2,223 bases of DNA, from the NCBI RefSeq assembly GCF_003334315.1, contig NZ_QOWR01000110.1; one strand, written 5' to 3'. This document shows, in pieces, positions 1,667-1,846 of the stretch (the stretch's first letter is position 1; each line of letters starts with the position of its first letter). The DNA comes from Escherichia coli (GTDB lineage: Bacteria > Pseudomonadota > Gammaproteobacteria > Enterobacterales > Enterobacteriaceae). The notes below the pieces were generated by a model. That model made no database searches. It saw only the letters and a program-made list of their open reading frames with translations, and was not told the origin of the DNA. Position numbers and translations under genes: made by a program.

Positions 1667-1682
1667 GTGCAAAAATATTCAG

Positions 1683-1707
1683 AGCCATGCTTTTTGCGTG
1701 GCTTTTG
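1683..1707 (+). terminator. Candidate rho-independent terminator downstream of cdgI
   Basis: agccatgc (1683-1690) and gcgtggct (1696-1703) can form a 7-8 bp GC-rich stem (one G-U pair) around a ttttt loop, followed by a T-run (1703-1706). It sits 17 nt after the cdgI stop codon. Hand-folded; no energy calculation. Confidence 0.45.
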
Positions 1708-1764
1708 CATACAATTTATTACTATTACCCCTAAATTTCCCCTCCCCAGCGGCGCAGAGATGAG

Positions 1765-1770
1765 TATAAT
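1765..1770 (+). promoter_or_regulatory. Candidate -10 hexamer TATAAT (perfect consensus) for dgcJ; no recognisable -35 at 17-bp spacing; GC-rich sequence immediately downstream
   Basis: tataat at 1765-1770, about 77 nt upstream of the dgcJ ATG. The sequence at the -35 position (ctcccc, 1742-1747) does not resemble TTGACA. A -10-only architecture would be compatible with a sigma-S-type or activator-dependent promoter, but that is inference. Confidence 0.35.
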
Positions 1771-1828
1771 TAGCGCCCCTGTGCCAGGCCGCAATCGAAC
1801 TTTATCTGGTTTTCTCGTTTCACTAACC

Positions 1829-1835
1829 GAAGGAG
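1829..1835 (+). promoter_or_regulatory. Shine-Dalgarno sequence (GAAGGAG) for dgcJ
   Basis: GAAGGAG lies 11 nt upstream of the ATG at 1847. This supports 1847 as the true start rather than the GTG at 1667 used by the ORF track. Confidence 0.6.
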
Positions 1836-1846
1836 TGCCATTTATC

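Follow-up and report, generated by a model that had tools for sequence, protein, structure and literature searches.

A Candidate sigma-70 Promoter and a Strongly Conserved dgcJ Leader at the cdgI-dgcJ Gene Boundary of Escherichia coli

The genes cdgI (yeaI) and dgcJ (yeaJ) of Escherichia coli are separated by a spacer of 180 nt, and the question raised by this locus is where, and by which form of RNA polymerase, the transcription of dgcJ begins. DgcJ is a diguanylate cyclase. By activating the Nfr exopolysaccharide system locally, it renders E. coli sensitive to phage N4, and it also has a damping effect on motility. CRISPRi directed at dgcJ or at its promoter leads to resistance to phage N4, the same phenotype as that of dgcJ loss. 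In our search of the literature, the dependence of dgcJ on temperature, growth phase, Fis, and CRP was found to be reported, and a promoter architecture or a mapped start was not described.

A first-pass annotation of this DNA, made from the sequence, had pointed to a hairpin with a T-run after the cdgI stop codon, a TATAAT hexamer lacking a -35 partner, and a punctuated C-tract. All three features are real and are found where they had been placed. The interpretation attached to them was partly right. Separate transcription of the two genes, a promoter within the spacer, and a functional element at the position of the C-tract are supported by the data presented below; these data lend no support to an alternative sigma factor and do not demonstrate termination. 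We conclude that the spacer is probably a conventional gene boundary of the E. coli core genome, with an ordinary sigma-70 promoter for dgcJ. Its features are ordinary and largely known, and the promoter region has previously been cloned and used.

Gene Boundary and Hairpin Downstream of cdgI

The window analyzed here is a stretch of 2,223 nt from an E. coli contig, and all positions refer to it unless noted otherwise. Between 127 and 2146 the window is collinear with E. coli K-12 MG1655 (NC_000913.3 coordinate = window position + 1870194) and differs from it by three single bases, at 283, 414, and 1459. The spacer (1667-1846) contains none of these differences and is identical to that of K-12 MG1655. 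The two ends of the window are the ends of multi-copy mobile elements, and because the insertion element cuts dgcJ after codon 100, the function of this gene in the source genome is moot. A 401-nt query across the spacer (1560-1960) was at least 99% identical in 5405 of the 5413 matching complete E. coli genomes, and thus a core E. coli intergenic region is concerned. E. coli genomes contain one copy of the spacer, which rules out a known repeat element as its identity. The coordinates of all features are collected in Table 1.

The locus was compared column by column between E. coli and five further species-level lineages of Escherichia, among them E. albertii and E. whittamii. The near-neutral yardstick for the spacer was the divergence at the third codon positions of the flanking genes, which was determined to be 18-38% in four of the five Escherichia comparisons. 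Orthologous loci were also found in Citrobacter, Klebsiella, Kluyvera, and Salmonella arizonae. Beyond Escherichia, cdgI is absent, and in several of these loci the 3' end of yeaH was seen by eye just upstream of dgcJ; the cdgI-dgcJ spacer is therefore an arrangement specific to Escherichia. When the dgcJ upstream sequences from these other genera were read by eye, an extended -10 element (TGnTAnAAT) was found approximately 25-35 nt before the ATG, with no evident -35 element.

Table 1. Features of the cdgI-dgcJ locus in window coordinates. Variable columns refer to the comparison of six Escherichia species.
Feature	Positions	Strand	Basis or conservation
cdgI (yeaI) coding sequence, stop TAA at 1664-1666	191-1666	+	ORF list and RefSeq annotation of the identical K-12 region
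Intragenic extended -10 TGATATTTT (1384-1392) and published weak start A1399, assigned to yeaJ	1384-1399	+	Cho et al. (2014); motif read from sequence
sigma-54-like site TGGCACGGTTTTTTCA inside cdgI	1546-1561	+	One mismatch to TGGCAC-N5-TTGCW
Outer complementary arms TGCAAAA (1668-1674) and TTTTGCA (1703-1709)	1668-1709	+	Inverted repeat I1; consensus fold
Stem-loop AGCCATGC (1683-1690), loop TTTTT, GCGTGGCT (1696-1703), and TTT tail (1704-1706)	1683-1706	+	Fold and conservation
Variable segment	1717-1725		6/9 columns variable
Conserved island TACCNCTAAATTTCNCCTCCC, containing most of the C-tract	1726-1746	+	2/21 columns variable; about -51 to -31 from the predicted start
Variable segment	1747-1758		6/12 columns variable
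Invariant zone GATGAGTATAATTAGCG with -10 TATAAT (1765-1770) and the start of the GC-rich discriminator	1759-1775	+	0/17 columns variable
Predicted dgcJ transcription start, 6-8 nt past the -10	1776-1778	+	Predicted from promoter geometry; not mapped
Variable segment around the predicted start	1776-1783		4/8 columns variable
Very strongly conserved block: most of the dgcJ 5' UTR, SD GAAGGAG (1829-1835), ATG (1847), and first 33 codons	1784-1944	+	5/161 columns variable
dgcJ (yeaJ) coding sequence, first 100 codons	1847-2146	+	Truncated by the mobile-element end at 2147
UCCUUC in dgcJ (codons 22-23), predicted pairing partner of SD positions 1829-1834	1910-1915	+	Fold prediction only

A G+C-rich hairpin with an 8-bp stem and a 5-nt loop begins 17 nt past the TAA of cdgI. 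The folding energy, which had been named as a check on this feature, was calculated for the RNA from 1675 to 1715 and found to be -15.5 kcal/mol, which is better than that of shuffled sequences (z = -3.65; equalled in 1 of 200 shuffles). The stem-loop by itself is predicted to fold with -13.0 kcal/mol, and the corresponding values for the five other Escherichia species are -12.4 to -13.2 kcal/mol. The 7-bp core of the stem is paired in all six species, with one change from U.G to U-A. The stem-loop is thus present, stable, and conserved, but the T-run that had been described with it is short, since the TTT is directly followed by G at 1707. In every one of the six species the tail (UUUGCAUA) has 3-4 U among its first 8 nt. 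A consensus terminator scan, which needs at least five T in eight, called zero terminators across the window because the tail of the hairpin falls below this number. The outer arms flanking the hairpin form a helix in the consensus fold that is retained in four to five of the six species, and in this model they could lengthen the hairpin and sequester its U-tail.

Termination at 1707, as had been suggested, is not borne out by the available data. The U-tail is poor, and a 3' end at the hairpin (18717xx-18720xx) is not listed in the three conditions of the Term-seq data of Adams et al. (2021), where the absence is no proof because cdgI is weakly expressed. The only published yeaJ start, at 1399, lies upstream and inside cdgI, and transcripts from this start would therefore have to cross the hairpin. 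The hairpin is most likely a weak, leaky intrinsic terminator or a protector of the 3' end of the cdgI transcript.

Candidate dgcJ Promoter and Competing Explanations

The proposal that cdgI and dgcJ are transcribed separately agrees with the work of Cho et al. (2014), which assigns yeaI and yeaJ to different transcription units and in which the two genes shift in opposite directions in an rpoS deletion, dgcJ slightly up and cdgI slightly down. The log signals for b1786 (Table S7 of that study) are 6.3-6.5 in the wild type and 6.7-7.2 in the rpoS deletion. The ChIP-chip regions of the same study were converted to window positions by subtracting 1868218 from the U00096.2 coordinates. The RNA polymerase region (RNAP_882, 1550-1900) and the sigma-70 region (SigD_763, 1525-2149) both cover the spacer, at a resolution of a few hundred base pairs. 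The cloned yeaJ promoter drives GFP expression with a transient peak, and its activity is lower in fis and crp deletions (2017 reporter paper). The boundaries of the reporter fragments are partly known, one 5' primer beginning at 1619, and the supplement of that paper does not describe the Fis site or the truncated construct. The occupancy by RNA polymerase and sigma-70, the activity of the cloned reporters, and the invariance of the TATAAT zone together support the presence of a promoter in the spacer.

The hexamer at 1765-1770 is an exact match to TATAAT (6/6) and is unchanged in the six Escherichia species. By number alone the motif is not remarkable in this A+T-rich window, since it occurs four times against 2.2 expected, and 40 of 200 shuffles reach four. 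The description of the hexamer as lacking a -35 partner was confirmed: the promoter scan returned no -35/-10 pair using the TATAAT at 1765-1770, and a GC-rich discriminator lies behind it. The best -35 candidate found by eye, TCCCCA, matches at 3 of 6 positions with a 16-bp spacer. A TG is present at -16/-15, whereas an extended -10 would need it one base further downstream, at -15/-14. An inverted repeat flanking the -10 (CAGCGGCGC and GCGCCCCTG), noticed by eye, was dropped from consideration as it is not conserved in E. albertii.

The pattern CCCC-TAAATTT-CCCC-T-CCCC is found exactly at 1728-1747 and was produced by none of 200 shuffles. It had been regarded as a possible functional element in the place of a -35 or an activator site. 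Such an element is supported as far as a conserved island is found between variable flanks (Table 1), but not for the C4 runs themselves, none of which is intact in all six species (1730 C to A, 1740 C to T, and 1747 C to T). The central TAAATTT is unchanged in all six species, and we take the conserved element to be the island and not the C-runs as such, because each run is broken somewhere and the TAAATTT is invariant. The center of the AAATTT lies at about -41.5 relative to the predicted start, which would be the place where the C-terminal domain of the RNA polymerase alpha subunit (alpha-CTD) or a class II activator binds. A G-quadruplex or i-motif in the C-tract was considered and rejected; three of the C4 runs are adjacent, the fourth lies 28 nt off, and the runs are interrupted in other species.

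The alternation of conserved and variable segments from the island to the predicted start fits a promoter with its -10 at 1765-1770, namely a constrained -35/-41 region, a free spacer, a constrained -18 to -2 region, and a free start. The TATAAT at 1765-1770 is most likely the -10 element of an ordinary sigma-70 promoter for dgcJ. RNA polymerase with the housekeeping sigma-70 would initiate from this promoter, approximately 60 nt beyond the hairpin, and the start is predicted at about 1776-1778; the start-site table of Cho et al. (2014) lists nothing near 1777. With neither a usable -35 nor a correctly placed extended -10, it would rely on the perfect -10 and on a contact in the island between -51 and -31, made either by some activator or by the alpha-CTD, which would bind the A+T core TAAATTT around -41. 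Taken with the transient peak and the Fis dependence that has been reported, the GC-rich discriminator suggests that the promoter may be sensitive to growth phase. The resulting mRNA would carry a leader of 70 nt, and with both the leader and the first 33 codons constrained, the output of dgcJ is probably also set after initiation.

A CRP site (TGTGA-N6-TCACA, up to three mismatches) is absent from 1684-1890. A search with the Fis consensus gave one Fis-like match overlapping the -10, which is within chance expectation, and no clear Fis site in the promoter. The reported effects of CRP and Fis on dgcJ may therefore be indirect.

The first-pass annotation had proposed mapped 5' ends as a check. 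The start reported by Cho et al. (2014) at 1869617 in U00096.2 (window position 1399) lies inside cdgI and is the sole start assigned to yeaJ; yeaI and yeaJ are separate units in the same study. One explanation is that dgcJ is expressed mainly by read-through from promoters internal to cdgI, the start at 1399 and/or the sigma-54-like site, with a hairpin that does not terminate and a TATAAT that is incidental or minor. The TGATATTTT element is well placed for this start, with a 6-nt gap to A1399. The ChIP-chip regions for sigma-N (1275-1799) and sigma-S (1375-1761) are both centered upstream of the spacer (Cho et al., 2014). A sigma-54-like site, covered by the sigma-N region, is present 300 nt upstream of the dgcJ ATG, and yeaJ is a predicted sigma-54 target according to Francke et al. 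(2011), whose text does not state the position of the site. The weak U-tail of the hairpin and the missing Term-seq 3' end are also in keeping with read-through. On the other side, the start at 1399 was documented by 5 reads, the RNA polymerase region leaves out 1399 and covers the spacer, and separate units are listed for the two genes. The sigma-54-like site has TC in place of GC in its -12 element, and the -24 element differs among the other Escherichia species. The two upstream motifs vary as ordinary synonymous sites do, whereas the TATAAT and its surroundings are invariant. We consider it unlikely that read-through is the main source of dgcJ transcripts; we regard the start at 1399 and the sigma-54-like site as specific to E. 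coli and probably minor.

The dependence on an alternative sigma factor, or on a dedicated activator that recognizes the punctuated C-tract, as put forward in the first-pass annotation, is to be judged equally unlikely as a whole. It draws on the absence of a -35 element, on the exceptional composition of the C-tract and its place in a conserved island at the -35/-41 position, on the dependence of the reporter on Fis and CRP, and on the response of expression to temperature. Its two parts fare differently. A perfect TATAAT is the -10 consensus for sigma-70 (and sigma-S), sigma-70 occupies the region, and deletion of rpoS does not lower dgcJ expression but raises it slightly, which speaks against dependence on sigma-S. 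No sigma-54 motif was found within the spacer, the site at 1546-1561 being the sole match in the window, and the sigma-28 (FliA) motif TAAAGTTT-N11-GCCGATAA has no match anywhere in the window with up to three mismatches. An alternative sigma factor is very improbable on these grounds. The activator part overlaps with the explanation by a sigma-70 promoter, and an activator or alpha-CTD contact is plausible, but the broken C4 runs next to the invariant TAAATTT and the lack of a CRP site argue against recognition of the C-tract as such. The spacer or the conserved block might instead encode a protein, either an N-terminal extension of DgcJ from the ATG at 1760, a CdgI-DgcJ fusion made by stop codon read-through, or the product of a 77-codon ORF on the minus strand (1663-1896). 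A single reading frame does run through cdgI, the spacer, and dgcJ, broken only by the TAA at 1664-1666, and no stop codon interrupts the minus-strand ORF in any of the six species. However, the substitutions in the variable part are mostly nonsynonymous in both frames, E. albertii has a 1-nt deletion, the ATG at 1760 has no good SD, and the orthologues in other genera begin at the same ATG, with MKL. We rejected a coding function of the spacer or the block on either strand, as the frames are open but the substitutions are not coding-like and the deletion in E. albertii shifts the frame; an alternative protein encoded by 1784-1944 was likewise ruled out, and the coding explanation is highly improbable. 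The sigma-70 promoter with its -10 at 1765-1770 is the reading that we retain. This -10 and the upstream island (1726-1746) are concrete targets for mutagenesis, within what is routine promoter anatomy.

Conserved Leader and Early Coding Block of dgcJ

The strongest conservation at this locus is found downstream of the predicted start, in the block from 1784 to 1944, where the synonymous sites of the first 33 codons of dgcJ are also frozen. The block holds the lowest 150-nt intervals of the 5.3-kb locus, with 4 variable columns compared to typically 15-50, and the next lowest interval outside of the block and its overlapping flanks has 14. Within E. coli, two or more mismatches to the block were found in 11 of 5408 genomes; for the flanking 161-nt segments the corresponding counts are 1426 of 5407 and 769 of 5413. 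The few substitutions in the block follow the grouping of the species: strain E1V33 and E. whittamii have those at 1805 and 1817 in common, and E. albertii shares the one at 1817. Introgression was ruled out as the cause of the conservation because the few substitutions track the species grouping, and for the same reason the block is attributed to purifying selection and not to recent exchange between species. This pattern of conservation suggests that dgcJ may be subject to post-transcriptional control.

In the predicted fold, the SD pairs with the UCCUUC of codons 22-23 with a probability of 0.83, the probability that the SD is unpaired is 0.04, and the AUG is located in a hairpin loop. Among 300 synonymous recodings, the exposure of the SD in the native sequence ranks in the lowest 2.3%. 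The predicted probability for an unpaired SD changes little with temperature, from 0.04 at 25 °C to 0.10 at 42 °C. The 5' UTR by itself does not exceed shuffled sequences in stability (z = +0.47), and the UTR with 100 nt of the ORF is not unusually stable (z = -1.34). The counts of conserved pairs across genera are suggestive at best, being biased by a structure that was derived from one of the aligned sequences. An Rfam scan of the whole window gave nothing near the gathering score, with a best E-value of 4.6 and no match in 1667-1950.

Adams et al. (2021) reported a region of Rho-dependent termination inside dgcJ by Term-seq, with a peak at 1872252 (window position 2058). The coverage upstream and downstream was 81 and 38 without bicyclomycin and 120 and 150 with bicyclomycin (score 2.66, p = 1.7e-5). 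A leader that limits translation would fit this observation, as a hypothesis. We tentatively entertain the possibility, which we hold to be doubtful, that the block is a cis-acting mRNA element, in which the pairing of the SD with the UCCUUC would close three small hairpins and leave the start codon looped. Translation would then be low and the early transcript would be exposed to Rho-dependent termination inside dgcJ, until the structure is opened by temperature or by an RNA or protein partner. If this model is correct, the diguanylate cyclase that sensitizes E. coli to phage N4 would be switchable post-transcriptionally. Of the whole locus, only this frozen stretch of leader and early codons may lead to something new, a post-transcriptional control point of a c-di-GMP enzyme.

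A dgcJ promoter reporter was found to be stronger at 37 than at 30 °C, and Junkermeier and Hengge cite the same pattern for dgcJ at 37 versus 28 °C.

Comparison with Known Systems

Intrinsic terminators usually carry a U-run of about 7-8 residues. The hairpin after cdgI is similar to these in its stability of about -13 kcal/mol, its G+C-rich and conserved stem, its position 17 nt past the stop codon, and the T residues that come next. It differs in having only 3-4 U, in a U-run that can pair with an upstream A-run, and in the lack of a Term-seq 3' end.

The candidate dgcJ promoter resembles sigma-70 promoters that have a consensus -10 and no -35 in its perfect TATAAT, its occupancy by RNA polymerase and sigma-70, and the activity of the reporters; its orthologous promoters in other genera belong to the extended -10 class. 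From this class it is set apart by a TG at -16/-15 instead of -15/-14; no activator site was identified for it, and its start is a prediction. A second parallel is with promoters under growth-rate and stringent control, of the rrnB P1 type. The rrnB P1 promoter has a near-consensus -35 and mapped Fis sites, neither of which is found for dgcJ. The two share a consensus -10, a G+C-rich discriminator (TAGCGCCCC in dgcJ), and an A+T tract at about -41, the position of the proximal UP subsite, and the reported Fis dependence and transient expression peak of dgcJ are in line with this type; the resemblance is a lead only.

For the conserved block, the closest comparison is with thermosensors of the rpoH type, in which an mRNA leader hides the ribosome-binding site using early coding sequence. 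The dgcJ leader differs from these in its fold z of -1.34, in the small predicted opening of the SD between 25 and 42 °C, and in offering no covariation to draw on, and the published effect of temperature on dgcJ came from promoter reporters. The features that dgcJ has in common with this class are an SD predicted to be paired 75 nt downstream inside the ORF, frozen synonymous sites in the first 33 codons, and stronger expression at 37 °C than at 28-30 °C.

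Conservation of the dgcJ leader and start region

The highest conservation in the 5.3-kb locus was found for the block that contains most of the dgcJ leader and the first 33 codons of the gene. The block is nearly invariant in six Escherichia species, synonymous sites included, and the same near-invariance is found over about 5400 E. coli genomes. A Dcm methylation site (CCAGG), unchanged in six species, lies at the block's upstream edge. The block also contains a perfect inverted repeat, TGTCA-N6-TGACA, at the same place as the third of the three small hairpins in the predicted leader fold. 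As a CRP site, the repeat is a poor match.

Features of the cdgI-dgcJ window
Feature	Window position	Remark
Insertion element end, multi-copy	1-126	IS1 in annotation of matching genomes
Extended -10 GATGATATTTTAGCGCGA	1382-1399	Published weak start site, A1399
Sigma-54-like site TGGCACGGTTTTTTCA	1546-1561	Inside cdgI
Minus-strand ORF	1663-1896	Open over the spacer
TAA	1664-1666	Sole break in the frame 191-2146
GATGAGTATAATTAGCGCC	1759-1777	
Conserved block	1784-1944	
Dcm site	1784-1788	
CTGGTTTTCT	1807-1816	
Inverted repeat	1891-1906	
Second element end, multi-copy	2147-2223	Copy number in E. coli genomes: median 3

Upstream motifs and open frames

The sigma-54-like site is covered by a published sigma-N ChIP-chip region, and yeaJ (dgcJ) is named as a predicted sigma-54 target in a published text that gives no site position. 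This site is not kept in other Escherichia species. The extended -10 within cdgI resembles GATGAGTATAATTAGCGCC of the spacer; the likeness may be a coincidence or may reflect a small duplication.

The cdgI gene, the 180-nt spacer, and dgcJ share a single reading frame, interrupted solely by the cdgI stop codon, and the minus strand is likewise open over the spacer. A coding role for these open spacer frames was rejected, given substitution patterns that do not look like those of coding sequence and a 1-nt deletion in E. albertii.

The region upstream of dgcJ in other genera

The cdgI gene is missing from the orthologous dgcJ loci of Citrobacter, Klebsiella, Kluyvera, and Salmonella arizonae (L007-L021), and in several of these the DNA preceding dgcJ reads as the 3' end of yeaH. 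In every member of this set an extended -10, TGnTAnAAT, precedes the dgcJ ATG by about 25-35 nt. The Escherichia segment placed opposite this element by the multiple alignment is CTGGTTTTCT, which has no usable -10.

Termination and insertion elements

Adams 2021 reported a Rho-dependent termination region within dgcJ, some 210 nt past the start of the ORF, at window position about 2058 (NC_000913.3 1872252). The yeaI (cdgI) start sites of Cho 2014 are located further upstream, at window positions -111 and -68. The cdgI ATG is 64 nt downstream of the first insertion element end, and this element cuts the gene off from those start sites. We take the element to be IS1. The second element, presumably IS2-like, breaks dgcJ after codon 100, and dgcJ is therefore a pseudogene in this genome. 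No match spanning the junction of dgcJ with this element was found among the complete E. coli genomes of the collection, and the whole-window matches, among the matches listed, end at 2146. For laboratory MG1655 lines, independent insertions of IS elements into dgcJ have been published.
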